A stretch of DNA of 28,396 bases from an uncultured Anaerolineae bacterium (GTDB lineage Bacteria > Chloroflexota > Anaerolineae > SpSt-600). Of the stretch, positions 8,688 through 28,003 are shown one piece after another. Each line of letters starts with the position of its first letter. Position 1 is the first letter of the stretch. The stretch is from assembly GCA_964404055.1 (NCBI GenBank), contig CAYOIS010000002.1, positions 1 to 28,396 of the forward strand, written 5' to 3'. Both the position numbers and the translations under genes were made by a program. The notes beneath the pieces were generated by a model that searched no databases, was not told where the DNA came from, and saw only the letters and a program-made list of their open reading frames with translations.

Positions 8688-8923
8688 AAAATCCGAGGAT
8701 GAAGGGGGGTCGGGGCACTTTTGGAGATGCTCGGAATTTTGGCGCGGTATGCCACTACAAGTAGTGGGGCAACAGCTCCAAACTGGCACTTATGGGGTAT
8801 TTGGGCGGCAAAAATCCGAGCATCCTCCCACTTTTTGGGGCCTGTGGAGATGCTCGGAAATGGAAAAGATGGTAGTTTTTGGCCAAATTCTGGTTACAGA
8901 GATGATGTTTAATGGCTTCATAG
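8688..8923 (+). promoter_or_regulatory. CRISPR leader-like sequence, copy A
   Basis: Homologous to 18361-18629 (identical 28-mer GCACTTTTGGAGATGCTCGGAATTTTGG at 8715-8742 and 18388-18415). Two inverted-repeat units at 8692-8735 and 8815-8858; ends at a CRISPR repeat. Confidence 0.75.
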
Positions 8924-8960
8924 GTGAAAGATTGAGCTATCCCCTTCGGGGGATTGAAAC
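8924..8960 (+). CRISPR. Solitary CRISPR repeat A (37 nt)
   Basis: GTGAAAGATTGAGCTATCCCCTTCGGGGGATTGAAAC has the hairpin ATCCCC-TTCG-GGGGAT and a 3' ATTGAAAC handle; the 3' half matches repeats at 18630 and 28063-28238. Confidence 0.75.
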
Positions 8961-9057
8961 ATCAGACCTAACCCCCTGGCCCCCTTCCCTAGCAGGGAAG
9001 GGGGAGAATTCCGGCGGGGGGTCTCCCCGCTCCGGGAAAGGGCCGGGGGAAGGGTTA
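8961..9057. repeat. GC-rich REPIN-like palindromic element A
   Basis: Perfect 11-bp hairpin CCCCCTTCCCT-AGC-AGGGAAGGGGG (8980-9004). Outer arms TAACCCCCTGGCCC and GGGCCGGGGGAAGGGTTA are complementary. Near-identical start to 18667-18710. Confidence 0.7.
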
Positions 9058-9092
9058 AAAGTGTAGATGAGACCTGCAGGAGGATTTGATTT

Positions 9093-11555
9093 ATGGAAGA
9101 GAAAAATGCCGTTTACTTTATCGCTCTTGCCTCTTTGCTTCAGCACATTGGGAGGTTTGCCAAGCTGGCCGGCTTTGAGGAGTTACTCCTGGAGAAGCCT
9201 CTGGAGGAACGAGAGAAGAAAATCCTCACGCTGGCCGACTATCTATCCACGGGCGAATTGCACCTTGCAGAAGGAAAGCAGCCCCGTCAGCTTCGCTCCA
9301 TCTTCTGTTCCCTCACTGCCGATGGCCAACAGGCCCCGGAAGTCCTATACTGGCCCCTGCAACCTCTGCAAATGCGTCAGGATGCCATCTTCCCTCAGAA
9401 AGAAGCGGTCTCTGAGACGATAAAGAAGGCCTATGAAGACCTCGGGGCAAAGTTTAAGGAGCAAGCTGAAAGCTTAAGAAAAACCCAGGGTGAGAACTTG
9501 CCTATCTACTTGGAAAGCCTGCTCCTTCTGCTTCAGCGCTATGCTTGGTGCATCCCTTCTGCCCTTCCGGACGTAAGCCTTTACGATCACGCCCGAATTG
9601 CCGCTGGGTTGGCAGCCTGCCTGTTGGAGCAAGACGAGGCTACGCTGGGGCAAATTCTAAATGCGCTGGAGGGATGGTTTCAGGCCCGCAATACGAACAA
9701 AGCTGCCCCGGCGTCCGAAGTGCTGGAGAAGGCAGAACTTGCCCTGCTGGTCGGTGGGGATATAAGCGGGGTACAGGACTTCATCTATACCATCACAGCA
9801 CGAGGTGCAACGAGCGCACTGCGGGGCCGCTCATTCTACCTCCAACTCCTAACTGAGGCAGTGGCCCGTTACGTCCTCCGGCGGCTTGGTTTGCCCATCA
9901 CTAACCTCATCTACCAAGGTGGCGGAGTCTTCTACTTGCTGGCCCGCCCATCCGACCAGGCTCGCCTTGAAGAAATCCGGCGGGAAGTGAGCTGCATCTT
10001 GCTGGCTCACCACCGGGGCGACCTCTACTTGGCGTTGGCTTTTGTCCCCCTCCACGCTGCTGACTTCTACGGCGGGCGCATCTCCGGAAGGTGGGAAGAG
10101 CTGGGGGAGCGGTTGCAGAAGGCCAAGCAGCGTCGCTTCTCCGAATTGGGGGATGAGCTGGCTTGGCTATTCCAGCCCGAAGGACACGGTGGTAGCGCGG
10201 AGAGAGAATGCCAGGTCTGCGGGCGGGAGCATCCAGGCACTAAAGAAGATAATGGAACCCGCAAATGTCCACCCTGCCTTTCGTACGAAGAGTTAGGGGA
10301 TGATTTGCGGCAGGCCCGTTACCTTTGGATGGCCCAAGAGGACCCGGCCGTGCCGGCTAAGCCCCTGGATGTAACACAAGGCGGCTGGAAAGAAGTCCTC
10401 GCTGCCTTCGGGATGAAAGCTGGTGTAGTGAAAGAACTCAAAGACGTGCCCAATACTATCAGGCCACGTTGGATTTTAGCCCTGAAAGATGAGGCAATGG
10501 CAGACTTGCAGCCTGATCCCCAAACCGTCGTTGGCCGCCGGTTCTTGGTCAATGTGACCCCGATTTTGACCCAAGAGGAATGCAATGAATTCCGGGGAAA
10601 GATAGAAGGCCTCTCTAAGCCGGGAAGCGTTAAGGATTTCTCCGTGATGGAACATCAGTCTAAGGGCATCAAGCGGCTGGGAGTCCTACGGATGGATGTA
10701 GACAACCTGGGCAAGCTCTTTGCCGAGGGATTTGGAGAGAAGGCGAGCTTTTCCCGGGTTGCCGCACTCAGCTTCGCCATCAGCCTATTCTTTGAGGGGT
10801 GGATAGAGGTACTGGCAGAAAGGCTGGGGAAGGATGAGAAAGGCCACGACCGCTTATACTCAATCTACTCCGGTGGGGATGACCTTTTCTTCGTGGGCTC
10901 TTGGGATGCTGTGGTAGAACTGGCGCGAGCGATTCGGGCGGATTTTTCCCGCTTTGTGGCTGGCCATCCGGGCGTCCATACCAGTGCTGGAATCGCCCTG
11001 ATCGGTGCCAAGTACCCCCTTTATCAGGCAGCAGAGGACGCTGGAAGGGCTGAGAGTCAGGCAAAGGGATTGCGCTGGGAAGAGGATGGAAAGAAGCGTG
11101 AGAAGGATGCCATCTCTTTCTTGGGGCAGGCTCTACCGTGGTACCGCTTTGGCATGGAGGACTGCGTAGAGGGTATGGATACCGTTCACAGCTTGGCTCA
11201 CCTTCTGTTCAGGTTAACCTCCCCGCAGGATAAAGGTGGGGAAGGTGTTCCCAGGGCCTTGCTCCAATTGCTGATTCGTCTCCGGGAGCTGCACCAGGAG
11301 ACTGCCGAAAGGCGGGCCCGAGTTGGGGAAGACCGTAATCTGGCCGGGACGGTTCAGACCTACTATGGCCCTTGGATTTGGCGAGGATACTATTTCCTGA
11401 AGAGGATGGCGCGGCGGCTGGAAAAGGAGCAACCGAAAGCCAGTAAAGATGTGGATAAGTTAGCAGATATGCTCCACAAAGGAAACTTCCGGGCAATAGA
11501 GTGGATTGGCTTAGCCGCCCGATGGGCGGAACTGCTGGGAAGGGAGGAAAAATAG
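9093..11555 (+). CDS. cas10: Type III-A Cas10/Csm1; HD motif degenerate, GGDD cyclase motif intact
   Basis: LLQHIGRF at the HD position, SLYDHAR, Palm1 GGDISGVQDFIY...LRGRSFYLQLL, Zn finger CQVC...CPPC, Palm2 RMDVDNLG...YSGGDDLFFVG. Confidence 0.96.
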   Translation: MEEKNAVYFIALASLLQHIGRFAKLAGFEELLLEKPLEEREKKILTLADYLSTGELHLAEGKQPRQLRSIFCSLTADGQQAPEVLYWPLQPLQMRQDAIFPQKEAVSETIKKAYEDLGAKFKEQAESLRKTQGENLPIYLESLLLLLQRYAWCIPSALPDVSLYDHARIAAGLAACLLEQDEATLGQILNALEGWFQARNTNKAAPASEVLEKAELALLVGGDISGVQDFIYTITARGATSALRGRSFYLQLLTEAVARYVLRRLGLPITNLIYQGGGVFYLLARPSDQARLEEIRREVSCILLAHHRGDLYLALAFVPLHAADFYGGRISGRWEELGERLQKAKQRRFSELGDELAWLFQPEGHGGSAERECQVCGREHPGTKEDNGTRKCPPCLSYEELGDDLRQARYLWMAQEDPAVPAKPLDVTQGGWKEVLAAFGMKAGVVKELKDVPNTIRPRWILALKDEAMADLQPDPQTVVGRRFLVNVTPILTQEECNEFRGKIEGLSKPGSVKDFSVMEHQSKGIKRLGVLRMDVDNLGKLFAEGFGEKASFSRVAALSFAISLFFEGWIEVLAERLGKDEKGHDRLYSIYSGGDDLFFVGSWDAVVELARAIRADFSRFVAGHPGVHTSAGIALIGAKYPLYQAAEDAGRAESQAKGLRWEEDGKKREKDAISFLGQALPWYRFGMEDCVEGMDTVHSLAHLLFRLTSPQDKGGEGVPRALLQLLIRLRELHQETAERRARVGEDRNLAGTVQTYYGPWIWRGYYFLKRMARRLEKEQPKASKDVDKLADMLHKGNFRAIEWIGLAARWAELLGREEK

Positions 11556-11661
11556 GAAATCCGCACTCTGGATGCAAAAGCAAGGGCTGTAAATCCGGGG
11601 TGCTTAAGTCTAAGCCTGGTAGTTTACGGCCAGGCCTCAAAATTATAACAGGAGGTGACAA

Positions 11662-12120
11662 ATGACACAGCAACAGAAAGGAACAACTTTCAATCCTCCC
11701 ACCGATCAAGACCTGTGCACCATCATCACTGACCCCAACGGCACGCAGAAACTGGTGGAGTGGGCTGACCGGCTGGGAAAGCACCTGAAGGATATAGGCC
11801 TTACTTCTCATCAGATCCGCACCCTTTTCGGTGAAGTCCGCCTGATTCAGGCGGAGTGGAACACTAACCGTCAGCGGGCATTCCGCCGTCTGGTCCTACT
11901 CAAACCCAAGATGGCCTATCGGGCCCGCAAAGAGCGCGGCAAAGCCGTTGGGGAACTGGTCAAAGTCCTGGACCCGGCACTGGATTATGTGATTAAGGCT
12001 AAACCCCGTCCAAAGGACCAACCGCCGGGGACTGGGGACAACCAAGATGACAATTTCCAGCGGTTTGTGGAATTCCTTGAGGCCATCCTGGCTTACCACA
12101 AAGCTTACGGCGGAGAGTAA
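11662..12120 (+). CDS. csm2: Type III-A small subunit Csm2
   Basis: LTSHQIRTLFGEV, LLKPKMAYRARK, FVEFLEAILAYHK; lies between cas10 and csm3. Confidence 0.92.
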   Translation: MTQQQKGTTFNPPTDQDLCTIITDPNGTQKLVEWADRLGKHLKDIGLTSHQIRTLFGEVRLIQAEWNTNRQRAFRRLVLLKPKMAYRARKERGKAVGELVKVLDPALDYVIKAKPRPKDQPPGTGDNQDDNFQRFVEFLEAILAYHKAYGGE

Positions 12121-12138
12121 TCCCTGAGGAGGTGAACC

Positions 12139-14128: not shown

Positions 14129-14129
14129 A

Positions 14130-15424: not shown

Positions 15425-16312
15425 TTGGGTAAATTAATGGTTTGCTTAATTGGCGAACAGCCTATTCCCAACCTCTTGCCGCTGCGCCACCAGCCACCGG
15501 ATATAGCTTTGTTAGTGCACACTGACCGGACGAAGGGAGTGGCTCAGCGGCTCAAGAAATTGCTGGAACCCAAGGTTAAAGTTTACTTGCTTCAGACAGA
15601 CCCTTACGATGTTCAGAAAATCCATGAAGACCTTCAGAAATTCCTTGCTGAGAATATTGAGGAAGGGACGGAACTGGTGTTCAACCTGACCGGAGGTACT
15701 AAGACAATGGTTCTGGCTGCGTACGAGTTGGCTCGGGAACACAATGCCCCTTTCCTCTACCTTCAAAGCGAAGGTAAGCGCTCCGTCCTTTACCGATACC
15801 GGTTTGAGGCGAAGGAGCCCTTTTATGAAGACAAGGAAACAATACCAGGCGTCATCACCATTGAGGATTACCTGAAGGCTTACGTGGACAACTACAATGT
15901 TACCGAGCCGAGGAACCCCTTTGAGAAAGAAATTGGGAAAGCCTTGGAAGGAGCAGTGGATGAAGTGGTTAGTGGGGTAACTTTAGCTGCAGCGCTGGAG
16001 GTGGACTTGGTCGTTCGGAAAGGAAACCAGGTGGGCGTGATAGAGGCCAAAACAGGCGCCAGGGCAAGGAGTAAAGAAGGCCTGGACCAATTGAATGCTG
16101 TATGCGAGCAAAGATACTTGGGCACATACACCCATAAAATCCTGGTCGTAAACCAGCAATGGAGTCAAACTCTAACTAACCTCCGCGAACTGGCTAACGC
16201 CTGGCGCGTAACCGTAATTGAATTGCCCTCATTTACTGAAGAGCACCCTTTTCTGTCCGAAGAAGATAAAGAAGTCCTTCGGAGCGAAGTTATCAAAGTC
16301 CTAAGTGGATAA
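15425..16312 (+). CDS. CARF + PD-(D/E)xK nuclease effector (Card1/Can2, DUF1887-like)
   Basis: N-terminal CARF (VCLIGEQPIPNLL...FNLTGGTKTM) and C-terminal restriction-endonuclease-like motif EVDLVV...VIEAKTG. TTG start with GGAGG RBS. Confidence 0.82.
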   Translation: MGKLMVCLIGEQPIPNLLPLRHQPPDIALLVHTDRTKGVAQRLKKLLEPKVKVYLLQTDPYDVQKIHEDLQKFLAENIEEGTELVFNLTGGTKTMVLAAYELAREHNAPFLYLQSEGKRSVLYRYRFEAKEPFYEDKETIPGVITIEDYLKAYVDNYNVTEPRNPFEKEIGKALEGAVDEVVSGVTLAAALEVDLVVRKGNQVGVIEAKTGARARSKEGLDQLNAVCEQRYLGTYTHKILVVNQQWSQTLTNLRELANAWRVTVIELPSFTEEHPFLSEEDKEVLRSEVIKVLSG

Positions 16313-16321
16313 GGAGGCCCT

Positions 16322-16705
16322 ATGATCGTCCTCAACTTTTCTCACCCCCTCACCGAAGAGCAATTAGCCCAGATAGAAGCGCTCACAGGCCAGAAAGTAG
16401 AGCGGGTCATAGAAGTGCCAACTCAACTGGACCCTGAAGCACCGTTCGCCCCGCAGGTGATGGAGCTTGTGGAGAAGGTGGGGCTTTCTCCCAAGGAATG
16501 GCAAACTTTGCCCATCCTCATTAACCCCCCATCCCTGAACGCCATTGCTGTTATCCTCTTGGCTGAACTCCATGGGCGGATGGGCTACTTCCCCACCATC
16601 ATCCGGCTTCGTCCTGTTCCGAACGCTATCCCTCCACGCTTTGAAGTGGCCGAATTAATCAACCTGCAAGCCGTGCGAGACAAAGCAAGGGAGCAGAGGA
16701 GATGA
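16322..16705 (+). CDS. csx15: CRISPR-associated protein Csx15-like
   Basis: MIVLNFSHPLT..Q...IE..TG, ILINPPSL, LAELHGRMGYFP recalled as Csx15 signatures; located among type III ancillary genes. Confidence 0.75.
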   Translation: MIVLNFSHPLTEEQLAQIEALTGQKVERVIEVPTQLDPEAPFAPQVMELVEKVGLSPKEWQTLPILINPPSLNAIAVILLAELHGRMGYFPTIIRLRPVPNAIPPRFEVAELINLQAVRDKAREQRR

Positions 16706-17457
16706 GGGAGCGAAAGGAACTCCTCAACTTTTTGAGAGCCTTCCTTCAGAGCGCCGAGTCCTCGCCAGAACTGCTGGCTGCCTTCATCCTGGGACTAATC
16801 GTAGCGAACACCTTAGCCCAGTTAGTTTACGAGCTGCTAATGGCGCCCAAAACCTGGTCTACCCTGTGGCGGCCTGCTTTGGCAATCTTTGTGATGACGG
16901 GTGTGGCTTATTTGCTCTACCGACGTGACCGGCAGCGTGCTCGCACCATGCATGTTGTCGTAGATGAGAACCGATTGGCTCCGCCTCACCCTGGCATAAT
17001 CTGGCTCTTCGGGCCAGGCCGGTTTGACCATCTGCTGTTCGCCCTTGAGCACCACCAGAAAGGAGGCGGGGCATCCCACTGCTGGTTAGTGATGCAGAAC
17101 ACAGAACCAGTGCAGAGGACATATAGCCAACTTATCCAGCAGCTGAATGCCAAGGGGCTGAAGACCCAACTGCATCCCATTTACATCCCCCAACTGGAAG
17201 CTGGAGATGCCTACCAGGCCGTCCGGAGGGTCTTTGAAGAGGAAGCGCCTAAGGTGGGCCTGAAGCCAGAAGAGGTTATAGCCGATATCACCGGTGGCCT
17301 TAAGCCTTTGACTGCAGGCATGATACTGGCTGCCATCACTCTTGACCGCGAGTTGGAATACGTGGAGAGCGAAAGGGACCCTCAAGGAGAGCCAATTCCT
17401 GGTACACTACGTGTTGTGCTAATAGACCTGAATTTCTATGTTACACGAAAGGGGTGA
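16702..17457 (+). CDS. Transmembrane CARF effector (Cam1-like architecture)
   Basis: Two N-terminal TM helices (LLAAFILGLIVANTLAQLVYELL; LWRPALAIFVMTGVAYLLY), then a CARF-like Rossmann domain with IADITGGLKPLTAGMILAA. Confidence 0.78.
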   Translation: MRERKELLNFLRAFLQSAESSPELLAAFILGLIVANTLAQLVYELLMAPKTWSTLWRPALAIFVMTGVAYLLYRRDRQRARTMHVVVDENRLAPPHPGIIWLFGPGRFDHLLFALEHHQKGGGASHCWLVMQNTEPVQRTYSQLIQQLNAKGLKTQLHPIYIPQLEAGDAYQAVRRVFEEEAPKVGLKPEEVIADITGGLKPLTAGMILAAITLDRELEYVESERDPQGEPIPGTLRVVLIDLNFYVTRKG

Positions 17458-17458: not shown

Positions 17459-18340
17459 ATGCTTTTAGCAGCAGTAATCTTCCTTTCCCCTTTATACCCA
17501 GTAACCCTCCCCGCTGACCTGGGGCGGGCGGTCCATGCCTGGTTCTTAGGGCAGGTGCAAAGGGTTGACCCCGCCCTGGCCGAACGTCTCCATGAGCCCA
17601 ACCGCCCTCGCCCTTTCACCCTCTCCTCTCTCCGGGGTGTAGGGAAAACCACAGGGGGAATGGTAGCCCTTACCCCGGAGCAGGATTACTGGCTGCGGGT
17701 GACCAGCATGGAAGCGACCATCTCCCGCTGCTTGCTGGAGCATATCCTCCCGGCCCTGCCTGGGGAAGAGATAGAGCTGGCGGGGGCAACTTTCAAGATT
17801 AAGGGAGCAACCTACGACCCAGCAGAGCATCCTTGGGCTGGGCAGACAACTTACGAAGCACTGGTTAAAGAACACTTGCTTGGGACAGGGCAATTGGAGC
17901 GCACGCTGACCCTCCAGTTTGCCTCGCCTACCACCTTCCGGCGGACAGGGATGACCTCAAGCCTGACCGATGGGGAGGGGCAAGCCTACCGGGTAGTGGG
18001 GCACAATTTCCTGCTGCCTTTGCCTGGGCTGGTCTTTGACAGTTACCTTCAGCGATGGAATGCCTTTGCCCCAATAGCACTTCCGCTGGAGGTGAAGCGG
18101 TTTGCGGAGGAATGTGTGGCAATAAGCCGATACCGGCTCCAAACCGTGCTGGTGGAGTTTGGGGAGGTCCGTGAGCTTGGATTTGTGGGGACATGCCAGT
18201 TCACTGCGCTGGTAGCAGACCCCTACTGGTTGCGTATCTTGCACCTTCTGGCGGCCTTTGCCTTTTACGCTGGCACAGGCCACCACACCGCCCGTGGGAT
18301 GGGGCAGACAAGGGAATTGACAATAACCAGCGAGAAATGA
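17459..18340 (+). CDS. cas6: CRISPR precursor-processing endoribonuclease Cas6
   Basis: LHEPNRPRPFTLS, FASPTTFR, C-terminal G-rich loop FAFYAGTGHHTARGMGQ. Start set to the ATG at 17459, right after the upstream stop codon. Confidence 0.92.
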   Translation: MLLAAVIFLSPLYPVTLPADLGRAVHAWFLGQVQRVDPALAERLHEPNRPRPFTLSSLRGVGKTTGGMVALTPEQDYWLRVTSMEATISRCLLEHILPALPGEEIELAGATFKIKGATYDPAEHPWAGQTTYEALVKEHLLGTGQLERTLTLQFASPTTFRRTGMTSSLTDGEGQAYRVVGHNFLLPLPGLVFDSYLQRWNAFAPIALPLEVKRFAEECVAISRYRLQTVLVEFGEVRELGFVGTCQFTALVADPYWLRILHLLAAFAFYAGTGHHTARGMGQTRELTITSEK

Positions 18341-18360
18341 TAAAATAAGTGTGGAAGGGA

Positions 18361-18629
18361 AGAATCCGAGCATGAAAGGGGGTAAGGGCACTTTTGGAGA
18401 TGCTCGGAATTTTGGCCAAGTGTGCCCCTACAATTAGTGGTGCAAAGGTTCTAAATCGGCACCGGTAGTGTATAATGGAGGCAAAAATCCGAGCATCCCC
18501 CCACTTTTTAAGGCCTGTGGAGATGCTCGGAAGTGAAAAAGATGGTAGTTTTTGACCAATTTTTGGTTACAAAGATGATGTTTGATGGCCTCTTGGGTGA
18601 AAAATTGAGCACCTTAACAATCTTGAGGA
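18361..18629 (+). promoter_or_regulatory. CRISPR leader-like sequence, copy B (most complete)
   Basis: Inverted-repeat units at 18365-18408 and 18488-18531; TATAAT at 18471-18476; starts ~20 nt after the cas6 stop and ends at a repeat. Confidence 0.78.
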
Positions 18630-18666
18630 GTAGAAATGAATAGTGCTCCCTTCGGGGGATTGAAAC
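18630..18666 (+). CRISPR. Solitary CRISPR repeat B (37 nt)
   Basis: GTAGAAATGAATAGTGCTCCCTTCGGGGGATTGAAAC; its 5' end matches repeat C1 (28063) and it carries the ATTGAAAC handle. Confidence 0.78.
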
Positions 18667-18776
18667 ATTAGACCTAACCCCCGGCCCCCTTCCCTTGCAG
18701 AGAAGGGGGGATTCTGGTGGGGCGGGTTTTCCCCTCCCCGTTTCGGGGAGTGGCCGGGGGAGGGGTTGATTGAAAC
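18667..18776. repeat. GC-rich REPIN-like palindromic element B, followed by a second GATTGAAAC
   Basis: ATTAGACCTAACCCCCGGCCCCCTTCCCT-TGC-AGAGAAGGGGG. Outer arms CCCCCGGCC and GGCCGGGGG pair perfectly. GATTGAAAC at 18768-18776. Confidence 0.7.
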
Positions 18777-18796
18777 TTTAAAGTGAGGGTGTGGGG

Positions 18797-21151
18797 ATGA
18801 TGCGAAGTCTACGGTGGTTAGCACTTCTTCTGCTTTTACTCTTGCTGGCTGTAGGCCAAGGAGCAAAAGCCCAACAACCTGCCCCAGCCGAGAATGTTTC
18901 GGTAGTTCTGGTTGTTGATAGCTCCGGAAGCATGAAGACCAATGACCCTACAGACCTCCGCTTCACGGCCGCAAAGCTCTTCATCAGCCTCTTAGATTTG
19001 AAAGATTCAGTGGGCATAGTAAACTTCGCCAGCAGGAGCCACGTCCTTGTAGATTTGGTGAGGATTGAAGCCGAGAGGGAAAAAGAGCCTTTGATGAAGA
19101 AGCTTGAAGGCATTGAAGCTAAGGGAAATACCCATATGCTCGCTGCGCTGAAAGATGCACGCACCCTCCTCTCTAAGGATACTTCCCCGAACGACAAATT
19201 CGTCGTCTTCCTCACCGATGGCGAACCGCACCCCGATAACTGGGATAAGATGAGCGATGATGAGAAACGGAATTACATAGAGGAAACCTTGAAAGTGGTT
19301 GGTGAGATAGACTGGCCTGTCCTCTCCATCGCCTTTACGAAAGAGGCCTATGTCCCGTTCCTTGAAGATGTGAGCAGAATAAGCAAGGGAAAGCTTTTCT
19401 ATGCCGCTACCCCAAGAGAGCTTCCGGAGGTCTATGAGGAGGTCTTCGGCCACCTCAAGGACAGGACAATATTCGGCCCCGGATTCGTGGACGCTCCGAC
19501 CTCGGTCAAGTTTACGATTGACCCCTTTGTCAAGAAAGTAAGCTTCGTAATCGTCAAGCCGGAATCGGTAACAGTGAAAATCCTCACCCCTGGTGAAAGA
19601 ACTCTTGACCTTAGCGACCCGAAGGTGGTTCGCTTCTTAACCCCTCGCTTTGAGACCGTGACAATTGAGGATCCGGCCCCTGGGACTTGGACAGTGGAGC
19701 TGAGTGGCTCTGGGGAGGCGCATGTTAAGGCCATCGTCAAATCCAAGCTCCGCATCCTAAGCCCCTCACCTCTATCCCCTCACCCAAAGGGCAAACCAAT
19801 GCTCGTGGCGGCCAGCCTGAACGAGCTTCAACCAGATGGTTCATACAAACGTTTAGTCGGAGATCGCATCTTCTTGGCTGAGCTGACCACCCCCAAAGGT
19901 GAACGGCTATCCCTTACCCTCTACGATGACGGGACCCATGGAGACAAAATGATGGGGGATGGCATCTTTTCCACACTTTATAACCCTGAGCTTGAAGGCC
20001 CCTTCAACATCCTCTTCCAAACCTGGGAAGGACCCATCCCTGTCCGCTCGGAGAGGACAATATGGGTTTTGCCATTCCCCGAATTAATCGTTGATTCTCC
20101 GAAGGGGGAGGAATACGAACTTAAGGAGCCCTCCTTAGCCATCAAGGCCCATTTGGAATTAGAGGGGAAACCTTTCACATTGGAGGGGGCCAAGGTCATA
20201 GCAAAGGTGCGAAGGCCCGATGGAAGCGTGGAGACATTGGCCTTGCTCGAGAGGCATGGCTTTTACGAGGCCGCTTTCATCCCTACCGAAGGGAAGCATG
20301 AAGTCACTTTTACCCTGGAAGGGATTTATAAGAAGACCCCCTTCACCGATTCCAAGGGTGTATCCTTCGGAGTTAAGTTCTTTATCCCTACCATCTTCAT
20401 TCGCCCCGGCGAGGTGAACCTGGGGCGTATTGATGGCCTCAAGGAGGGGAAGGTAATAACCTTCACCGTGGAATCCTCCTCTCCCCATGAGGAGCTCCTG
20501 ACGGCAAGTGTGCCCGAGTTTGAGAATTTAAGGGTCTCTTTAGAGCCGAACCGAATCCCACCGAGTGGGAAGGTGCAAGTTAAGCTCACCATCTCGGCGG
20601 TGCCCCCCTTTAAGCTCAGCCTTTTCAAAGCGATGGACTGTAAGGGAAGCATCGTCTTCTCCTCACGGGCGGGGGTGGTTATCTCACCTGCCGAGGTCCA
20701 CCTCAGGTTTCACATACCTTCCCTTTGGGAGATTTATCGGAAATGGGTATTCTTAGCAGTTTTGCTCCTCTTGAGCGTCATCTTTGGGGGAAGAAAAGTG
20801 AAACAAATTATGAAGGGGCCCCTTCTCACTGGCACCCTCCTCTACTGGACGGAAGCCACTAAGGGTTCGCCAACCATGGTAAGTTTAGATGAGCTTGAGA
20901 AAAAGGCGATAACCATTGGCCAGGACCCTAAATGTGATATATGCTTGCCTGATCCGAAGCTCAACCCTAAACATGCCCAACTGAGGGCAAGGAAAGAGGA
21001 GGGGGAGGTTGTGGTAGAGCTAAACCCCTTGGAGGATTCCGAAATATACATTGGCTTTCGCCGCTTGACCACCTCCATAACGCTGCGCCATAAGGACGAA
21101 TTTCGGATGGGTGATTACACCTTTAAGTATCTGAAAGAAGAAGCCTTTTAA
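18797..21151 (+). CDS. Single-pass surface protein: signal peptide, vWA, beta-sandwich repeats, TM helix, FHA-like domain
   Basis: Signal peptide ending AKA; MIDAS DSSGSM...T...FLTDGEP; LYDDGTHGD...GDG motif; TM WVFLAVLLLLSVIFGG; C-terminal ITIGQDPKCDICL...KHAQL. Alternative starts at 18791 and 18800. Confidence 0.82.
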   Translation: MMRSLRWLALLLLLLLLAVGQGAKAQQPAPAENVSVVLVVDSSGSMKTNDPTDLRFTAAKLFISLLDLKDSVGIVNFASRSHVLVDLVRIEAEREKEPLMKKLEGIEAKGNTHMLAALKDARTLLSKDTSPNDKFVVFLTDGEPHPDNWDKMSDDEKRNYIEETLKVVGEIDWPVLSIAFTKEAYVPFLEDVSRISKGKLFYAATPRELPEVYEEVFGHLKDRTIFGPGFVDAPTSVKFTIDPFVKKVSFVIVKPESVTVKILTPGERTLDLSDPKVVRFLTPRFETVTIEDPAPGTWTVELSGSGEAHVKAIVKSKLRILSPSPLSPHPKGKPMLVAASLNELQPDGSYKRLVGDRIFLAELTTPKGERLSLTLYDDGTHGDKMMGDGIFSTLYNPELEGPFNILFQTWEGPIPVRSERTIWVLPFPELIVDSPKGEEYELKEPSLAIKAHLELEGKPFTLEGAKVIAKVRRPDGSVETLALLERHGFYEAAFIPTEGKHEVTFTLEGIYKKTPFTDSKGVSFGVKFFIPTIFIRPGEVNLGRIDGLKEGKVITFTVESSSPHEELLTASVPEFENLRVSLEPNRIPPSGKVQVKLTISAVPPFKLSLFKAMDCKGSIVFSSRAGVVISPAEVHLRFHIPSLWEIYRKWVFLAVLLLLSVIFGGRKVKQIMKGPLLTGTLLYWTEATKGSPTMVSLDELEKKAITIGQDPKCDICLPDPKLNPKHAQLRARKEEGEVVVELNPLEDSEIYIGFRRLTTSITLRHKDEFRMGDYTFKYLKEEAF

Positions 21152-21173
21152 CGCTTGCTAAAGGAGGTGGAAA

Positions 21174-24029
21174 ATGGAAAGGGTGCAAGAATTTTACTTC
21201 TCCCCTACCCTCATCATTGGCCTTGGGGGGACGGGGCAAAAAGTGGTTAGGAGGGTAAAGGGAAGGCTGAGGGAGGCCTTCGGTGATGTCCCAATCATAC
21301 GCTACCTGGTTATAGACACGGACAGCACGGCCAATCAGCCAGGTGAGGAGCCTTTAGAGGACTACGAGCGAGTGGAAATGAGAGGATTTGACCTCAACCA
21401 GGTCGTGGAAAATCTGTCGAGGTTTCCTTCCATTCAGAAGTGGTGGCCTGCCCCTGGACTTAAGCCAGGCTTCATCCGTGGCGGCGCTCCCCAGCAGATG
21501 CGATGTGCAGGTAGGTTGGCCCTCTTCAGCAAATATTCTGACTTCATCCCAAAGCTTAGGGAAGCTGCTAGCGCATTGGCGGAGATTGAGAACTATACAA
21601 AGACCGAAGAAATGAGCACCCCTGAAAAAAGATACATCGTTGAAAGGGGAGAAGAAGGGGTGCCCATCATGGCGAAGGTCTTTATCATACTATCCCTCTG
21701 TGGGGGGACGGGGAGCGGCATCTTACTTGATGTCGCCTATCTCTGCCGTTACCTCCTTCAGGATCTCCACCCAAGGATTAACGTCATGGCCGTTTTGCCT
21801 ACCGCGCTGGATACGATACCCACAATAAGAAGAACTACTATCATCAGGGATAAGAACAGGGCCAACACCTATGCTTGCCTTAAAGAGATAGACCATTTCC
21901 TTTCCAACCCTCGCTGGGTCTGCTTATACCCTGATGGGGCAAGCGTTGAGGTTAGTGCTCCTCCCTTTGACTTCATGTACATGGTGGATTTGCATAACCA
22001 AAAGGGGGAAAGGCTGAACTCCATAGATGACATCTGTGAGATGATCGCCAGCGCCATCTTTCTTAGCACTGGGTTGCCCACAGCGAGGGAAATAGAGAGG
22101 CAGGATACTATCTCTCATATCACTCTTGCTCAAGTTCAGGGTAAGTTTAGAGCTTACAGTTCTGTGGCAATCACTTCCCTCATCTTTCCAAAAGAGAGAA
22201 TCTTGGACTATTGTTCAGCAAAGATGGCTGAGGCCTTGATCAGGGAGGGTTTCTTGCAAGGGAGCGAAAGCAGCAGCGTTAAGATAAAGAAGAGCGATGT
22301 TGAACAAGCCGTCTCCGCCTTCCTCGGCGAGGCACACCTTAGAGCCGAGGATGTCATGTCCGAGTTGCGAAGCGGTAGGCAGGTGTTCATCACCAAGAAA
22401 TCCGAGATTCTCAGGAGCCAGGACGCAGCAAACGCCCTCCGGCTGCTCACGGAGCAGGAGGAAGACAATAGGAACCAAAGGCAAGAACAGGCAAACTTGA
22501 TCAAGGAGAAGGCTGCATCGCTCCTTGAAGAAGCAAAGGAGGCCTTAGAACGCAGGGTGCTGGACGAGGTAAAGGAGAGGGGCTTACACTTTGCTGCTCT
22601 TTTCTTGGAAACGCTGACTCGTGAGCCTCAGCCTGGGGAAGTTGGCGTAACCACCACATCGCTATTAGGCTTGCGGCGTAGAATAGAGTCGGAAGGAGTC
22701 CCAGAGGAGGCCCTGAAAAAAGCTGAGGGGAGCTACACCAAGGCGAAAAGCCAGCTCAAAGCATTTGAAGGGAATACTTTCTGGAAGGTGATAAGGTTTA
22801 TCTCAAAGTCCTGGTGGCAGCGAAAATTGAAGGGGCACATCTCAAATTGCCTCACGAACATGGAGGAGGCTAACGGGAGGGCCATTGACATTGAGGCCCA
22901 GAGGAGGGCATTGGATCTCTACAACGCCCTGGTAATGGAGGCGAAGCGCCTTCTATCAAGCCTGGCACAGGTCCGCCAGAAGCTGGTGATTGCTGCAGAA
23001 AAACTCTCAGCCGAGGCTGAAGATAAGCTAAAGCCTCCCTCGGCCATGGAAGGGGTATACGAGCTGGCCACAGAGGTAGTTGATGCCGATTACATCATGC
23101 GATACTATGAAGAGAAAGCAATCTCCATTGACTTACCCACCGCCTTCAGGGGATTTGCCCAGAGCCTCCCGGATACGAGGGTGGCACAGTTGGAGATGAG
23201 GAGTGAGAAAGATTATATCAACCGGCTAAAGGAATATGCTGCTGGCTACTTCCGGGAAGGCCTGGAAAGGATACGCTTGCTCGACCTCTTAAGCGAAAGA
23301 GCACCTGAAGAAATAGAAAGGCAATTCCAGAAGCTCATTAGTCACTGCGAGCCATTCTGTCGGTATAATAAGGCTGGCCTTGGCGAAGAGCCAGAACCTA
23401 TTTTTGTGTCCATCATCGGCGTTGAGGATAAGGGTGACCTTAGGATTCCGGAGCGCTACCGCAACGAGGCCATATCCACCGGCCTCAGGCACCGCATTGA
23501 TGCCCTTAGGGCTTTTCATGGCATCCCCGCTTTCCTAATAAGTGATATGAGAGAATACAAGGGCTGTTACGAGAGGGAGAAAAGGAGAGGCGTAGACCCA
23601 TTGCACATTGGCCAAGGATGGGATAGGTTTGAAGACATTTTCCCAGAGCTTAAGAGGGAGGCCAGGGACATCTTCGCCCTCGCTTTGGCCTTTGACTTCA
23701 TCGTTCAGATAGGGGAGTGGTACTACTTTGACCCCGACCGGAAGTACAAGGAAAAGGGAATACGATTACCCGTAGAGAATAGGCTCGCTCAAGGGAGGGA
23801 GAAAGCAGAGGAAGCTTTCATTGAAAGGGACGATATAGTGAGTAAGGCAATGGAGCTTATTGAAGAGGAAATCACCAGGAAAGGAAATGAGGCCATCATA
23901 AGCTTCTTGGAGCAAAAGATAGAGGAAAACGAAGGAAAAATCAGGGAACGTCCCACCAGCGACTTGCGGGAGTTTTGGGAAAGGGATATTGAAGCCTTCA
24001 AGCGCAAACTAAAAGCTTTGCAAGGGTAA
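21174..24029 (+). CDS. Tubulin/FtsZ-like GTPase (FtsZl1/Tubulin_2 type) with long helical C-terminus
   Basis: LIIGLGGTG, YLVIDTD, AGRLAL, signature SLCGGTGSG, ANTYACLKEID; ~600 aa helical/coiled-coil tail; AAGGAGG RBS. Confidence 0.85.
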   Translation: MERVQEFYFSPTLIIGLGGTGQKVVRRVKGRLREAFGDVPIIRYLVIDTDSTANQPGEEPLEDYERVEMRGFDLNQVVENLSRFPSIQKWWPAPGLKPGFIRGGAPQQMRCAGRLALFSKYSDFIPKLREAASALAEIENYTKTEEMSTPEKRYIVERGEEGVPIMAKVFIILSLCGGTGSGILLDVAYLCRYLLQDLHPRINVMAVLPTALDTIPTIRRTTIIRDKNRANTYACLKEIDHFLSNPRWVCLYPDGASVEVSAPPFDFMYMVDLHNQKGERLNSIDDICEMIASAIFLSTGLPTAREIERQDTISHITLAQVQGKFRAYSSVAITSLIFPKERILDYCSAKMAEALIREGFLQGSESSSVKIKKSDVEQAVSAFLGEAHLRAEDVMSELRSGRQVFITKKSEILRSQDAANALRLLTEQEEDNRNQRQEQANLIKEKAASLLEEAKEALERRVLDEVKERGLHFAALFLETLTREPQPGEVGVTTTSLLGLRRRIESEGVPEEALKKAEGSYTKAKSQLKAFEGNTFWKVIRFISKSWWQRKLKGHISNCLTNMEEANGRAIDIEAQRRALDLYNALVMEAKRLLSSLAQVRQKLVIAAEKLSAEAEDKLKPPSAMEGVYELATEVVDADYIMRYYEEKAISIDLPTAFRGFAQSLPDTRVAQLEMRSEKDYINRLKEYAAGYFREGLERIRLLDLLSERAPEEIERQFQKLISHCEPFCRYNKAGLGEEPEPIFVSIIGVEDKGDLRIPERYRNEAISTGLRHRIDALRAFHGIPAFLISDMREYKGCYEREKRRGVDPLHIGQGWDRFEDIFPELKREARDIFALALAFDFIVQIGEWYYFDPDRKYKEKGIRLPVENRLAQGREKAEEAFIERDDIVSKAMELIEEEITRKGNEAIISFLEQKIEENEGKIRERPTSDLREFWERDIEAFKRKLKALQG

Positions 24030-24038
24030 AGGGTTTTT

Positions 24039-26453
24039 ATGGAAGAGAGATTAGGCATTACAGTATTCCCTTCGGTGGTCATAGGCCTGGGGGAATTTGG
24101 GCTGAGAATAATTGAGAGAGTCCGCTCCGAGATTATAGAGGTTGAGCCAAAGCTGGAGCTCATCACCAGTTTTGTGGCCGTGCGAGGGGCAGGCGAAGGG
24201 AGAATAGAGGCCTTCTCCCTCACCGACTCGCCGATTGAGGGTGAATGCGTAGACATGCCGCGACGTGAGGCCTTCCAAACATTTCAAATCGCCCTGCCCG
24301 AGGTGCAAGTGCAGTTACATGAAGCCATCAGGAAAGTGAGGCTCCATCGGAGTCTGGTTGCCGTCGGAAAGCGGCCGGAGGAGATAGGCATCTATGTTTA
24401 CATTGTGGCCGACCTGAAGGAAGGCATCTCAAGCGGCATCATCCTTCCCCTGTCCTATCAAGTTCGTGGCCTCCTTGCAGATCAACCTTACCATTCCATT
24501 GTTGGCCTCTTCTCAATTGCTAATTTCTCGCCACCCTTGGAGCAACAAAGGGAGAGGGCAATGCTATATGCTGCCCTTAAGGAATTGGATTACTTCATAC
24601 GGATGCCCTACGACAAGCCCAGCGTGAATGAGATTATGGGTTTTCCCGTGAAAGGTCCTCCCCTTAACCACTGCTACCTGTTTGATGTAACCAAGGAAGA
24701 TGGTTCCTTGGTTGAGGGGCCCGAAGAGTTACGTAGCGCCATGAGTTGTTTCTTGCTTTCTCTACTCATTTCCTCCTTTGAGGAAGAGATGGGGAAGAGG
24801 CTCCATCGCCTCGGTTTGGCAGAGAGAGGCGGATTCTATTCCGGCGGAGGGGTTGCTGTTTTATACTACCCTGTGGATAGGGTAACAACTTGGTGCGCGG
24901 CTAAACTGGGAGCAAATTTCATAGAAGAGCAACTTCTCAGGCCGTCACGCCTCAACCTCAGTGCCTTGAGCGAGGAGGGCGAGCAGGCAGGAGAGGAGGC
25001 CTTAAGCCTTAAAAAGTGGATGGGGAAGCTAATAGACGGGATACCAGCCAGAATGACTGGCAAAGGACTTCACATTGAGCTGGAGGTGGATAGGCCGAAT
25101 TTTGACGAGATAGCCAAGGAGGACTGGGCTGATAGAATTGCCAGCTTTGATTCCCTCTTCGGAACACATCGCTTCCCTCTCTATCAGCGCAAGCTGGAGG
25201 AGAATGCTTCCCGGCTCCATGAGCGGGTTATATCTCGGCTTTCCAAAGCCCTTGATTCTGCCCTAACGGAGGCTCGGCTTTACCCATCCGGCATCCCAGG
25301 GGCTCGGAAAATCCTGGAAAAGTTTGAGGAGACCTTGGCGAAGCGGAAGCAAGAATTGGAGCAATATAGGGCTGAATTCCCATTAGACCCTGAAGGAGAC
25401 CTGCGCACCTTGGAGGAAGCTGCCCTGAACTTCCCACCTTTCCCTGCCCTCTTGGCTCGGCTTCTACTCCTATGTATCCTGGAGGTTTACCTTGGCCTTT
25501 CCTTTTTCCAGTTGCTTGATTTCCTCTCCCTGTTTTCTCTCCTCTCCCTCTTTGCCCTTTGCCTCCTCACCGTGGTAAGTGGCCTTTGTTGGTTCAAGCG
25601 AAAGGACGACCTACTCATCCAGAAGCGGGAGAGGTGCATGGAGAACGTGGGACGCAAGTACAGCGCCATGTTGGAAACCCAGGCCCTTGCCAAAATCAGG
25701 GAGACTATACAGAAAGTTGAGGAATGGATTGGGGAGATGAGGGCAAAGTTGGATGAGCTTTGGAATGAGCTGGAAGAGGCGCAAAACAAGCTGTACCAGG
25801 CGATGGAAGCAAGCCTTGTAGCAGCGGAGCCTTTCGTGCGCTTGGCGGTGAGCGAGGAAGTCCTTAGAGACTTTTACCTCCGCTTTGTCCCTTCAAAGGA
25901 GGCTTTGCTTTCTTCTTTACTGGAGGAAGAAGGGTTACTCAATAATTGGAAGGACCTCAAAGAGGGGATAATTAGGGAAAAGCTCCTTTCTTTTGGAAAG
26001 AAAGCCTTCAGAGGACCGCTGCGGGGGGTCTCGCTTGAGCAAATCTTGCGGGAGCGGATACCCCCTTCCCCGGAGGAGAGGCTGAGACCTCTTTTAGATT
26101 TGGCAGTGCCGCTTTTGAAGTTCAACCTTGAAGGTCTCGGTGAGGGGCTCTCCGCTTGGCCAGGAGATTTCATCGCCTTAGAGAACTTTTCCTCCTCAGT
26201 GCTGAGCTCCTTCATCTCCAAGGAATTAAGAGAAATGGAGCATTTCTCTACTGGTGACCCCTATCACGTCTTCCTTTGCAGGACGAGGCACCTTCTGCCT
26301 TTGATTTCCATCGGGACGGTAGCGAGACTGCTGAGGGAGCTTTATCAAAAGGTGGATAAAGAGGAGAGGAAGGCCCTACATTTACTTGACGAATGGGCTG
26401 ACCTTCCGGAACCATCGGTTAGCGGTCAGAGAGTAGGGGGAAGAGAATGCTGA
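24039..26453 (+). CDS. Degenerate tubulin-like paralogue with an internal transmembrane hairpin
   Basis: VVIGLGEFG, VYIVADLKEGISSG (aligns to SLCGGTGSG), AMLYAALKELDYF, CYLFD; hydrophobic stretch LLARLLLLCILEVYLG...LCLLTVVSGLCWF within coiled coil. Confidence 0.75.
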   Translation: MEERLGITVFPSVVIGLGEFGLRIIERVRSEIIEVEPKLELITSFVAVRGAGEGRIEAFSLTDSPIEGECVDMPRREAFQTFQIALPEVQVQLHEAIRKVRLHRSLVAVGKRPEEIGIYVYIVADLKEGISSGIILPLSYQVRGLLADQPYHSIVGLFSIANFSPPLEQQRERAMLYAALKELDYFIRMPYDKPSVNEIMGFPVKGPPLNHCYLFDVTKEDGSLVEGPEELRSAMSCFLLSLLISSFEEEMGKRLHRLGLAERGGFYSGGGVAVLYYPVDRVTTWCAAKLGANFIEEQLLRPSRLNLSALSEEGEQAGEEALSLKKWMGKLIDGIPARMTGKGLHIELEVDRPNFDEIAKEDWADRIASFDSLFGTHRFPLYQRKLEENASRLHERVISRLSKALDSALTEARLYPSGIPGARKILEKFEETLAKRKQELEQYRAEFPLDPEGDLRTLEEAALNFPPFPALLARLLLLCILEVYLGLSFFQLLDFLSLFSLLSLFALCLLTVVSGLCWFKRKDDLLIQKRERCMENVGRKYSAMLETQALAKIRETIQKVEEWIGEMRAKLDELWNELEEAQNKLYQAMEASLVAAEPFVRLAVSEEVLRDFYLRFVPSKEALLSSLLEEEGLLNNWKDLKEGIIREKLLSFGKKAFRGPLRGVSLEQILRERIPPSPEERLRPLLDLAVPLLKFNLEGLGEGLSAWPGDFIALENFSSSVLSSFISKELREMEHFSTGDPYHVFLCRTRHLLPLISIGTVARLLRELYQKVDKEERKALHLLDEWADLPEPSVSGQRVGGREC

Positions 26454-27508
26454 GGAAGCGTTTCTTTCAATCGGTTTTAGCGTTTGTGTTACTTTTCTTC
26501 GTCTTGCCCACCAACCTTCTGGTTTGGGCATCCACGGCCCCTCATCTTACCGTAGGTGTGAACTATAAATGGTTGCTCCTCTTGGGCATTTGCTTCCTTC
26601 TAGTTCTCATCTTGGTTGTGCTCTTCTTTAAACCTGAGGGGAAACTCGCTTGGGCCGATGAGCTTTGTTGGGCTGGGGATTTGCGGGGGTTGGATAACTT
26701 TCTCCTTTGGGTTTTGCCGCCAATTTCTCTTGGCCTGGCGCTGGCTGCAATCAGGTGGGAGACGGAAGGAGCCCTTTTCCTTTCGGTGCTGGTGTGGTTC
26801 GGCTTGCTGCTTAACCCCAAGGAAAGACCTCCCAGGAAGCCCATCCCTTTACCTGTTAGGGTTCCGGACGGCGATATTCACAAGTGCTACAGGTGGAAGT
26901 TTAGCGAAAGTTTGCCCCACTCTGCGGAGAAGATCCCCGTGGAGTTCACCCTTGAGCTTGATATAAACAGTGGTAGATATAGGGCATGCAAGGAGGAGCC
27001 GAGGGAACTAAACCCTCTGCGGTGGGACAAATATGTATTGGCCCCTCTGCCTGAGGTTGAGGTTTTGGCGTGGAAAATGGCCGAGCTCCATCGGAAGAGG
27101 GGGTATTGCAGCTACGACCAGGCTGCTAACGTGTTAGCTTTTGTCCAGCAGTGCATTGTGTACACTAAAGACCTCTCGCCCGAGGGAGAAGAAATAGAGT
27201 ATCCCAAGTATCCAATTGAGAGTCTGGTAGAGGAAACTGGTGATTGTGAAGACCATGCTATCTTAGCGGCGGCGGTCTTGAAGAGGATGGGATTTGATGT
27301 AGCGCTTCTTTTCTGTCCTGGCCATGCCGCCCTTGGCGTTGCCGGCGCCGAGGGATTACCAGGCACATATATAGAGGACAGGAGAACCGGAATCAAGTAC
27401 TTCTACGCCGAAACCACAGCTGAGGGGTGGGAAATAGGTGAGCTGCCGCAGGAACTGAGGGACGAGGAGTTCATAATTCTGCCCATAGTCTTGGCTATTG
27501 AGCGGTAA
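26447..27508 (+). CDS. Membrane protein with C-terminal transglutaminase-like cysteine protease domain
   Basis: Four hydrophobic segments, then FVQQCIVY, YPKYPIESL, GDCEDHAIL (Cys), PGHAALGV (His), YFYAETT (acidic residue). Overlaps the upstream gene by 7 nt. Confidence 0.8.
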   Translation: MLRKRFFQSVLAFVLLFFVLPTNLLVWASTAPHLTVGVNYKWLLLLGICFLLVLILVVLFFKPEGKLAWADELCWAGDLRGLDNFLLWVLPPISLGLALAAIRWETEGALFLSVLVWFGLLLNPKERPPRKPIPLPVRVPDGDIHKCYRWKFSESLPHSAEKIPVEFTLELDINSGRYRACKEEPRELNPLRWDKYVLAPLPEVEVLAWKMAELHRKRGYCSYDQAANVLAFVQQCIVYTKDLSPEGEEIEYPKYPIESLVEETGDCEDHAILAAAVLKRMGFDVALLFCPGHAALGVAGAEGLPGTYIEDRRTGIKYFYAETTAEGWEIGELPQELRDEEFIILPIVLAIER

Positions 27509-27653
27509 ACAAGAATTTTGATGGCTCCTGGGCCGCGGTTGGATTAGGAATGGGTAAGTTTCATGAAAGATTCGGTTGGAAGTGTGAATGGTCTTGGAAG
27601 CGCCATCTTTTATTTTAAGGTCGGCGCAGGCCGACCCCAGGCCTAAGGCCCAG

Positions 27654-27673
27654 GTAGGCTGATTTCAATCGGC
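27654..27673. repeat. Short REP-like palindrome, copy 2
   Basis: GTAG-GCTGAT-TTCA-ATCGGC; related to 7110-7125. Confidence 0.45.
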
Positions 27674-27846
27674 ATCAAGCTTGCCCTTTCCAGTGAGATG
27701 GGGTGAAATATAGCCAGCAAGCATTTTTATGTTTGTGCCTGTTGCTTTAGGCCGTAGCTGGCTTCACGGGACATTTCCGGACTATGGAATAGGGAAGTGG
27801 ATGGTAACGCAGGAGAGCGGAGGCTATCTTTATATAAGCCAAGGCC

Positions 27847-28003
27847 AAAATCCGAGGATGAGGTGGGGTCGGTGCACTTTCTGCAAGCCTCGGATTTTTG
27901 GGTGGGCATGCCCCTACTGGTAGGGGATAAGCAGCCTTGGACTGGCACTGGTAGGGCATGGTGGTGGCAAAAATCCGAGCATCTCCCCCACTTTTTGGGG
28001 CAT
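27847..28003 (+). promoter_or_regulatory. CRISPR leader-like sequence, copy C (3'-truncated)
   Basis: Perfect 11-bp inverted repeat AAAATCCGAGG/CCTCGGATTTT (27847-27898). The second unit's left arm is at 27974; its right arm is missing. Confidence 0.65.

Follow-up and report, generated by a model that had tools for sequence, protein, structure and literature searches.

The window, a stretch of 28,396 nucleotides from an uncultured Anaerolineae bacterium (Chloroflexota), contains three look-alike stretches, A, B and C, each built around inverted repeats of the form TCCGAG...CTCGGA, and the question is what these stretches are and what keeps their symmetry and spacing so regular. Direct reading and a regular-expression search returned five complete units of exactly 44 bp, in agreement with the coordinates and length given in the initial annotation, and the start-to-start distance between unit 1 and unit 2 is, as annotated, 123 bp in A, B and C. 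In the whole 1.99 Mb assembly the pattern TCCGAG-N(20-44)-CTCGGA occurs at these five places of the window only. With copies confined to five leader places, the motif fits neither a dispersed repeat (REP/MITE) nor the operator of a regulon. A stricter palindrome pattern matched in 8 of 401 genomes of the class, every time in a leader-like context, and its reversed control gave 0 matches; the units exceed chance expectation. The units and the features around them are listed below in window coordinates, with positions 7 and 8 counted along the arm; the position 7 states agree with those first annotated.

8640..8672, plus strand: remnant of the cas2 3' end before leader A, 29/33 identical to the last cas2 codons in genome G007
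8692..8735, plus strand: leader A unit 1, a 44-bp palindrome with arms TCCGAGGAT / ATGCTCGGA, position 7 G.G
8752..8767, plus strand: leader A middle palindrome, CCACTAC-AA-GTAGTGG
8815..8858, plus strand: leader A unit 2, 44 bp, perfect 10-bp arms
8938..8960, plus strand: 3' half of a CRISPR repeat fused to leader A, hairpin plus ATTGAAAC handle
18317..18346, plus strand: near-consensus sigma-70-like promoter, TTGACA-18-TAAAAT with TG, inside the 3' end of cas6
18365..18408, plus strand: leader B unit 1, 44 bp, perfect 9-bp arms, position 7 C-G, which is the class consensus
18425..18440, plus strand: leader B middle palindrome, imperfect
18488..18531, plus strand: leader B unit 2, 44 bp
18630..18666, plus strand: lone CRISPR repeat after leader B, 98 bp past unit 2
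27753..27787, plus strand: degenerate remains of a cas2 pseudogene before leader C, matching cas2 codons weakly at the DNA level (26/35)
27851..27894, plus strand: leader C unit 1, 44 bp, position 7 G-C, position 8 mismatched
27911..27926, plus strand: leader C middle palindrome, perfect CCCCTAC-TG-GTAGGGG
27974..28002, plus strand: leader C unit 2, the sixth unit, cut off after its first 29 bp and then joined to a repeat 3' end
28003..28238, plus strand: degenerate mini-array after leader C, a repeat fragment and three repeats with divergent 5' halves
28291-28303: terminator-like hairpin past the leader C mini-array

By alignment, A, B and C are paralogous copies of one CRISPR leader, 70-84% identical over matched stretches. 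The initial annotation had called them leader copies, and rightly: behind each of the three comes a repeat, or a piece of one, that ends in the ATTGAAAC handle. Read in the direction of crRNA transcription, they immediately precede the first repeat, homologous leaders precede arrays with up to 17 repeat cores (counted within the fetched contig), and the leader is conserved among related arrays together with adjoining adaptation genes. Traces of one such gene survive in the window. The remnant before leader A was matched to an intact cas2 of G007, which stands ahead of the homologous leader there, and the whole block upstream of leader C is homologous to the block before leader G004_a, which matches the start of cas2. 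Both remnants came from DNA alignment, as a tblastn search of Cas2 against the window gave no significant match. Leader B is placed after cas6. The arrays have collapsed, leaving a single repeat after A and B and a degenerate mini-array after C, and the distances from unit 2 to the repeat, 65 bp in A (taking 8924 as the nominal start of the repeat), 98 bp in B and 45 bp in C, are off phase. No cognate cas1 was detected in this genome, which retains units A and B intact. The palindrome modules in this genome are best read as relics.

Homologous leaders, about 280-290 bp long, were found in five other families of Anaerolineae as well as in two genomes of the same genus and in 11 metagenome contigs. 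Six families of the class share the architecture, which accompanies three different repeat families. The ancestral order is cas6-RT-cas1-cas2, 4 nt, unit 1, unit 2 and array; the 4-nt distance from the cas2 stop to unit 1 is seen in G131, G261, G111 and G025_C557, RT and cas1 stand upstream of the leader in G131, and in G007 the distance from the cas2 stop is about 50 nt. A count of cas1 genes in G145, G025, G333 and G352, all fragmented assemblies, yielded no pairs of integrases matching the half-site variants; the other cas1 genes there lie in a cas1-cas2-cas4 module. Wider searches added little. A scan of contigs with a degenerate 18-mer of the unit 2 arm returned more than 117 loci, three of them real and on the same G004 and G007 contigs; a phylum-wide search with a 19-mer of unit 1 found, outside the class, two chance matches in coding sequence only; and searches at family and order level around G145 and G131 gained one solo unit and nothing more.

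The three window copies carry little weight as evidence for an invariant geometry, because the whole block from unit 1 to unit 2 is nearly indel-free in these recent paralogues, the exception being one extra T in unit 2 of leader C. As the alignments read, the weight of the geometry argument comes instead from the distant homologues. Across all leaders, unit 1 measures 44 bp (43 in one leader), unit 2 measures 43-45 bp, and the spacing between units is 122-125 bp. Between genomes the units share 80-100% identity. In the comparison of the window with G004, identity is 77-100% for the unit blocks, arms and inner parts included, as opposed to 62% for 4-fold degenerate sites of cas6 and 63-67% for the DNA between the units; judged by this comparison, the units are conserved well above the neutral level. 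The inner sequences and the flanking A/T tracts are conserved, with a tract orientation that varies between families, and the inner part of leader C unit 1 is more diverged than that of A or B. The CTAC..GTAG middle palindrome is kept in all leaders, with some changes appearing on both of its sides.

The position of the units relative to the first repeat is likewise constrained. Unit 2 ends exactly 121 bp before repeat 1 in seven leaders from four families (one each in G131, G333 and G352, two each in G145 and G025), and the 121-bp segment itself is only 0.50-0.66 identical between leaders, which is the random level (0.57 for shuffled sequences). In the remaining leaders the distance is 100, 111, 112, 123 or 141 bp, that is, in steps of about 10.5 bp. 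Tested for a 10.5-bp period, the six distinct distances give a Rayleigh R of 0.83 (p about 0.005, uniform null), a statistic based on six length classes from related sequences. Counted from repeat 1, the unit ends fall near -121 and -244, and the start of the leader near -288. A conserved, helically phased distance to the leader-repeat junction is what a DNA-folding scaffold predicts; an RNA element or a plain operator needs none. Selection on symmetry and spacing, as initially proposed, is supported by units above the neutral level and a geometry recurring in six families. The window copies have lost their phasing to the repeat.

Each leader carries four half-sites with the consensus T-[C/G/T]-CGAGCATCG, each beside an A- or T-tract, and the variants TCCGAG, TGCGAG and TTCGAG change in concert within a leader. 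Position 2 has switched in all four half-sites to TGCGAG in G145_C610 and, independently, in G333/G352, and in three of four to TTCGAG in G025_C557; two variants coexist in the genome of G145 and likewise in that of G025. In unit 1 the position 2 pairs are CG in 14 cases, GC in 3 and UA in 1, with none unpaired. Such concerted change favours one reader common to the half-sites over simple pairing within a unit. The genuine mirrored changes are those at position 2, found in distant relatives and in all four half-sites of a leader together. The change between B and C at position 7, which had been taken as compensatory, is weak evidence, since about half of the units in the genus are mismatched there, the states being G-C, C-G, G.G, C.T, C.C and T.C.

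The reading we favour, at a probability of roughly 0.45, is that the units are a protein-docking scaffold for spacer integration that has become vestigial in this genome. The 44-bp units would be two distal modules of an Anaerolineae leader family that ancestrally lay between the RT-cas1-cas2 operon and the array. Their half-sites form two palindromes separated by about 123 bp, of which the second ends 121 bp, plus or minus whole helical turns, before repeat 1, and each palindrome may be a site in double-stranded DNA on which a protein surface with two-fold symmetry docks. The leading candidate for the binder is the Cas1-Cas2 integrase, possibly together with an architectural protein. Once bound, it would fold the leader and so offer the leader-repeat junction for the insertion of a spacer, much as in type I-F, where inverted repeats serve this purpose. 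The window lacks neighbouring cas1-cas2, its arrays have collapsed and its unit-to-repeat distances are off phase. The absence of cas1 and cas2 had initially been read as pointing to regulation, which misses the history of the locus: cas2 remnants before A and C, the ancestral RT-cas1-cas2-leader order and the phasing to the first repeat all point to adaptation. One expected companion of a scaffold leader, an IHF/HU site between the motifs together with a DNABII protein in the genome, was not found. No DNABII gene (HU/IHF; PF00216) was found in G000, G007 and G131 (completeness 94-97%), which leaves no evident counterpart of the bending factor in known models, and by eye the inner segments showed no match to the IHF consensus, nor was there a match to the sigma-54 consensus.

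Some of these observations would also suit transcriptional control, with the units as operators of a dimeric or tetrameric regulator that controls leader promoters by looping the 123 bp between them. Unit 1 would then lie at or just after the start site of the upstream promoter, and a second promoter would have its -35 box right next to unit 2. Promoters are predicted directly before unit 1 in leader B of the window (11/12, 19 nt before the unit and kept in G004_b and L145), in G025_C143 (10/12) and in G333 (9/12, with TG), and directly after unit 2 in G025_C557 (TTGAGA-17-TAAAAT, 10/12). Four identical half-sites changing in concert suit one sequence-specific reader, and the window units are kept ahead of two operons despite missing adaptation genes, the promoter-bearing leaders now preceding the csm operon and a vWA/tubulin-like operon. 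That units A and B are intact in the absence of a detected cognate cas1 could reflect another function rather than a recent loss. However, an operator gives no reason for the exact, helically phased distance to repeat 1, promoter positions are not kept in all contexts, and with no further site copies in the genome there is no regulon. The csm locus holds no HTH regulator, its only candidates being two CARF proteins that match only Can2/Card1 and the TIGR02710/Csa3-like CARF domain. We regard an operator role as unlikely. Given that several leaders have a strong promoter-like site upstream of unit 1, or cas2 directly before it, the units are probably also transcribed, and they might act as RNA hairpins in the cas2 3' UTR and the pre-crRNA 5' leader, for stability or processing or as a platform for RT or Cas6. 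The predicted hairpins are moderately stable (-22 to -25 kcal/mol, z -1.1 to -3.2), and the mirrored arm changes at position 2, among them the U.G of G025_C557 unit 2, would fit pairing. Yet the covariation term of RNAalifold is positive, that is, penalising, leaving covariation support at nil; departures from pairing are mostly true mismatches (G.G, C.C, C.T, A.A) and not wobbles; the 5' arm of unit 2 is far less conserved than its partner; loops are as conserved as arms; and both units switch variant jointly, which independent stems need not do. Rfam covariance models gave 0 matches at the gathering score in the whole window, and a hairpin leaves the phasing to the repeat unexplained, making an RNA role quite improbable.

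Terminators or insulators were first suggested by the A- and T-tracts of the genus, where unit 1 lies between GGCC-AAAA and TTTT(T)-GGCC, and where AAAAA before unit 2 would give a minus-strand hairpin of 13-15 bp followed by five U. Unit 1 would be a bidirectional intrinsic terminator ending the upstream operon, and unit 2 a minus-strand one shielding cas from array antisense transcription. Other families, however, have an A-tract after unit 1 and a T-tract after unit 2, which leaves neither strand with a conserved tract pattern; only in the genus does a T-tract follow unit 1, and on these grounds the idea was dropped. A terminator scan called no unit because the loops are 12-26 nt long, and loop conservation, half-site identity and phasing would all go unexplained, which leaves termination very unlikely. 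A geometry without function, left by recent duplication of one leader in this genome, would account for A, B and C being 70-84% identical and nearly indel-free throughout, beyond the units too, but it is scarcely credible in view of units and spacing kept across six families while the DNA around and between the units is no more alike than expected under neutrality or at random.

The scaffold reading has precedents in better-known systems. In type I-F, two inverted-repeat motifs and two IHF sites fold about 150 bp of leader around Cas1-2/3, and the two inverted repeats are bound by the Cas2 dimer, which offers a symmetric surface to each arm (10.1101/2023.05.26.542337; a survey of leader motifs, Santiago-Frangos et al. 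2021, is cited there). Both leaders have inverted-repeat arms upstream of repeat 1 at conserved, phased distances. The type I-F leader has one pair of arms, whereas the Anaerolineae leader has four half-sites in two 44-bp palindromes, for which docking is a prediction; it is also about twice as long (about 288 bp), tied to RT-cas1-cas2 and type III loci, and shows neither an IHF consensus by eye nor, in three genomes, a DNABII gene. The type I-E leader, as summarised in the same paper, combines an IHF site with an upstream motif that contacts Cas1 and is brought to the integrase by DNA bending, so that spacing to the repeat matters (10.1101/2023.05.26.542337). A leader-encoded motif spaced relative to the repeat is common to both, with bending a proposal in our case, but the I-E motif is single, short and within about 60 bp of the repeat, and the sites described here are palindromic and 121-288 bp upstream. 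Archaeal leaders of Thermococcales and Methanococcales have conserved motifs as far as 500 bp upstream, with histones coordinating them (PMC13748974), and resemble ours in being long, with distal conserved motifs, there aiding integration with a non-IHF architectural protein; phyla, motifs and architectural protein differ, and the distal motifs there have modest effects only. In type III-A adaptation of Thermotoga profunda, HU promotes leader-repeat integration (PMC13769266). That array is likewise bacterial and type III-associated, and its Cas1-Cas2 needs help finding the leader-repeat junction, but HU there has no preference for leader DNA and palindromic leader modules are not described, and no HU gene was found here in G000, G007 and G131.

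The look-alike stretches of the window can thus be explained as vestiges of duplicated cas2-leader-array modules that now stand ahead of other operons. For the way in which type III and RT-associated CRISPR integrases find the junction, the known solutions (IHF with leader motifs in I-E and I-F, histones in archaea) are not obviously applicable to Chloroflexota. Tentatively, the leaders may represent an undescribed, class-wide architecture for type III-associated RT-Cas1-Cas2, in which two 44-bp palindromic docking modules with four co-evolving half-sites at fixed, helically phased positions would allow about 300 bp to be folded onto the integrase in bacteria apparently lacking HU/IHF. Its four identical half-sites, exact 121-bp distance and natural variants differing by whole helical turns make this a directly testable design.

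The stretches that we call leaders A, B and C each carry two palindromic units, running from TCCGAG to CTCGGA. Direct reading agrees with the initial annotation that five units are complete and span 44 bp, that the distance from unit 1 to unit 2 is 123 bp in all three leaders, and that at arm position 7 leader A has G.G, B has C-G and C has G-C.

Palindromic units of the three leaders, from reading the sequence
8692-8735, unit 1 of leader A, 44 bp
8815-8858, unit 2 of leader A, 44 bp
18365-18408, unit 1 of leader B, 44 bp
18488-18531, unit 2 of leader B, 44 bp
27851-27894, unit 1 of leader C, 44 bp
27974, cut off at 28002, unit 2 of leader C (the sixth unit), incomplete

A pattern search for TCCGAG-N(20-44)-CTCGGA found five places only in the 1.99-Mb assembly, all of them the window's units, and the reversed control pattern gave 0 matches in 401 genomes; the units are therefore more than a chance feature. 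Two of the seven other genomes of the genus and 11 metagenome contigs also have such leaders; pattern searching and BLAST across 400 genomes of the class added five further families, and no comparable leaders were found in about 355 genomes from other classes of the phylum. In those five families the genes run cas6, RT, cas1, cas2; unit 1 starts after a further 4 nt, a short CTAC..GTAG palindrome lies between it and unit 2, and the array comes last. Three different repeat families accompany the leaders. One solo unit 1 of TGCGAG type (L188, G145:C260:333-376) has neither unit 2 nor an array nearby.

Comparison of the window with the congeneric genome G004 shows that the units, inner sequences and adjoining A/T tracts included, are under purifying selection, because unit blocks (arms plus inner parts) are 77-100% identical, versus 62% for 4-fold sites of cas6 and 63-67% for inter-unit DNA. 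The spacer between units drifts at the neutral rate while its length is kept. Across 18 leaders, the length of unit 1 is 44 bp, or 43 in a single case, that of unit 2 is 43-45 bp and the unit spacing is 122-125 bp. Seven leaders of four families have exactly 121 bp between the unit 2 end and the start of repeat 1, even though this segment is only 0.50-0.66 identical between families (shuffled sequences, 0.57); the remaining distances are 141 (G261), 112, 111, 123 and 100 bp. With a period of ~10.5 bp, the six length classes fall in phase (Rayleigh R 0.83, p ~0.005 against a uniform null), and the decayed leaders of the window, at 65, 98 and 45 bp, do not. The original proposal of selection on symmetry and spacing is supported by far more than is visible in the window, namely by conserved units and class-wide geometry. 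Within the same segment, leaders L140 and L146 have an 11-nt tandem duplication (112 to 123 bp, one helical turn), and leaders of families f18 and f43 (L159, L160, L161, L162, L171, L172) have a Shine-Dalgarno sequence and an ATG micro-ORF of 19-27 codons (M.Q.W.KVV..W..RPIW; 121-bp segment), not present in the window's genus, which could be a leader peptide or merely conserved DNA.

Each leader contains four half-sites, the palindrome arms, with the consensus, read outward-in, T-[C/G/T]-CGAGCATCG. Most leaders have C at position 2; G145_C610 has G in each of its four half-sites, as do, independently, G333 and G352, and G025_C557 has T in three of four. Two variants can coexist in one genome (G145, G025). 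In unit 1, the position 2 pairs are CG 14, GC 3, UA 1 and unpaired 0. At position 7 the class consensus is C-G. The compensatory change between B and C, cited earlier as evidence of selection, carries little weight, as position 7 in the window's genus is not only C-G or G-C but also G.G, C.C, C.T or T.C. Pairing as such is not maintained there; in the G004-like clade three of four half-sites have switched to G and unit 2 remains mismatched, and the difference between B and C may belong to a slow, concerted switch.

We assign a probability of roughly 45% to the units being double-stranded DNA recognised by a symmetric protein surface, with a role at the integration site, because their distance to the leader-repeat junction is fixed and helically phased, the four like half-sites change jointly, the inner sequences are conserved and the orientation of the A/T tracts is not. 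Such a surface would bind the double-stranded palindromes, and the bound units would act at the leader-repeat junction, where integration takes place. That they are instead regulator operators at leader promoters is unlikely: promoter-like sites lie just upstream of unit 1 in non-cas2 contexts and just downstream of unit 2, but the phasing to the repeat is left unexplained. RNA hairpins in the transcribed leader are somewhat more doubtful. The units, which are probably transcribed, fold moderately well; RNAalifold gave no covariation support, departures from pairing are mostly true mismatches with few wobbles, and unit 2 has a 5' arm far more degenerate than its partner. Terminators are improbable, matching the A/T tracts of the window's genus only.

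Layout of the window, which is an entire contig of an Anaerolineae MAG, in order
M28 peptidase gene
leader A with half a repeat
type III-A operon: cas10/csm1, csm2-5, Can2/Card1-like CARF protein, csx15, second CARF protein, cas6
leader B with one repeat
18791-27508, four-gene operon in leader orientation: vWA-FHA, Tubulin_2, degenerate Tubulin_2, transglutaminase-like
leader C with degenerate mini-array and terminator

The 33 nt just 5' of leader A match, at 88% identity, the end of an intact cas2 that in a congeneric genome stands before the homologous leader, and the block upstream of leader C is a decayed cas2; the three copies are therefore paralogous cas2/cas6-leader-array modules with collapsed arrays. 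Contig C6 of the assembly has a fourth leader, which is partial. Leader A retains only the 3' 23 nt of a repeat, fused to leader sequence (8924-8960), and leader C is cut within unit 2 and joined to the last 12 nt of a repeat at a GGGGA microhomology (27997-28014); each looks like the product of a deletion. The last cas6 codons contain, 19 nt ahead of unit 1 in leader B, a near-consensus promoter (TTGACA-18-TAAAAT with TG, 18317-18346), which is kept in L145-type leaders, where the remainder of cas6 is lost. At 15425-17457 the csm operon encodes csx15 and two CARF proteins, a short one (295 aa) of Can2/Card1-like type and a second whose C-terminal half holds a TIGR02710/Csa3-like domain; no HTH was detected. 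A MITE-like palindromic element of ~95 nt, with ends TTAACCCC...GGGGTTAA and G/C-rich hairpins inside, occurs at 8965-9058 and 18671-18767, elsewhere in the same genome (C6 ~9100-9200, C65:307-402) and in L003, L005 and L006; it stands directly 3' of the last repeat of arrays, truncates that repeat in G004 and breaks a leader just before unit 2 in G007:C244.

The nearest parallel comes from type I-F, in whose leader a Cas2 dimer binds two inverted repeats and IHF folds a 150-bp stretch (10.1101/2023.05.26.542337). Archaea, too, are known to have long leaders that carry distal motifs (PMC13748974), and in Thermotoga profunda HU aids a type III-A integrase (PMC13769266). Three Anaerolineae genomes (G000, G007 and G131; 94-97% completeness) yielded no HU/IHF gene (DNABII, PF00216) in a search that was positive for 9 of 14 control genomes. 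The window's assembly (95.6% complete) has no detected cas1, and its sole cas2, at a contig edge, is part of another system. Given the cas2 remnants, the ancestral RT-cas1-cas2 order and the phasing to the repeat, a vestigial adaptation scaffold is more likely than regulation, which the initial annotation had suggested in view of the missing cas1 and cas2. Judged from sequence, the architecture looks new within the known class of leader integration motifs.
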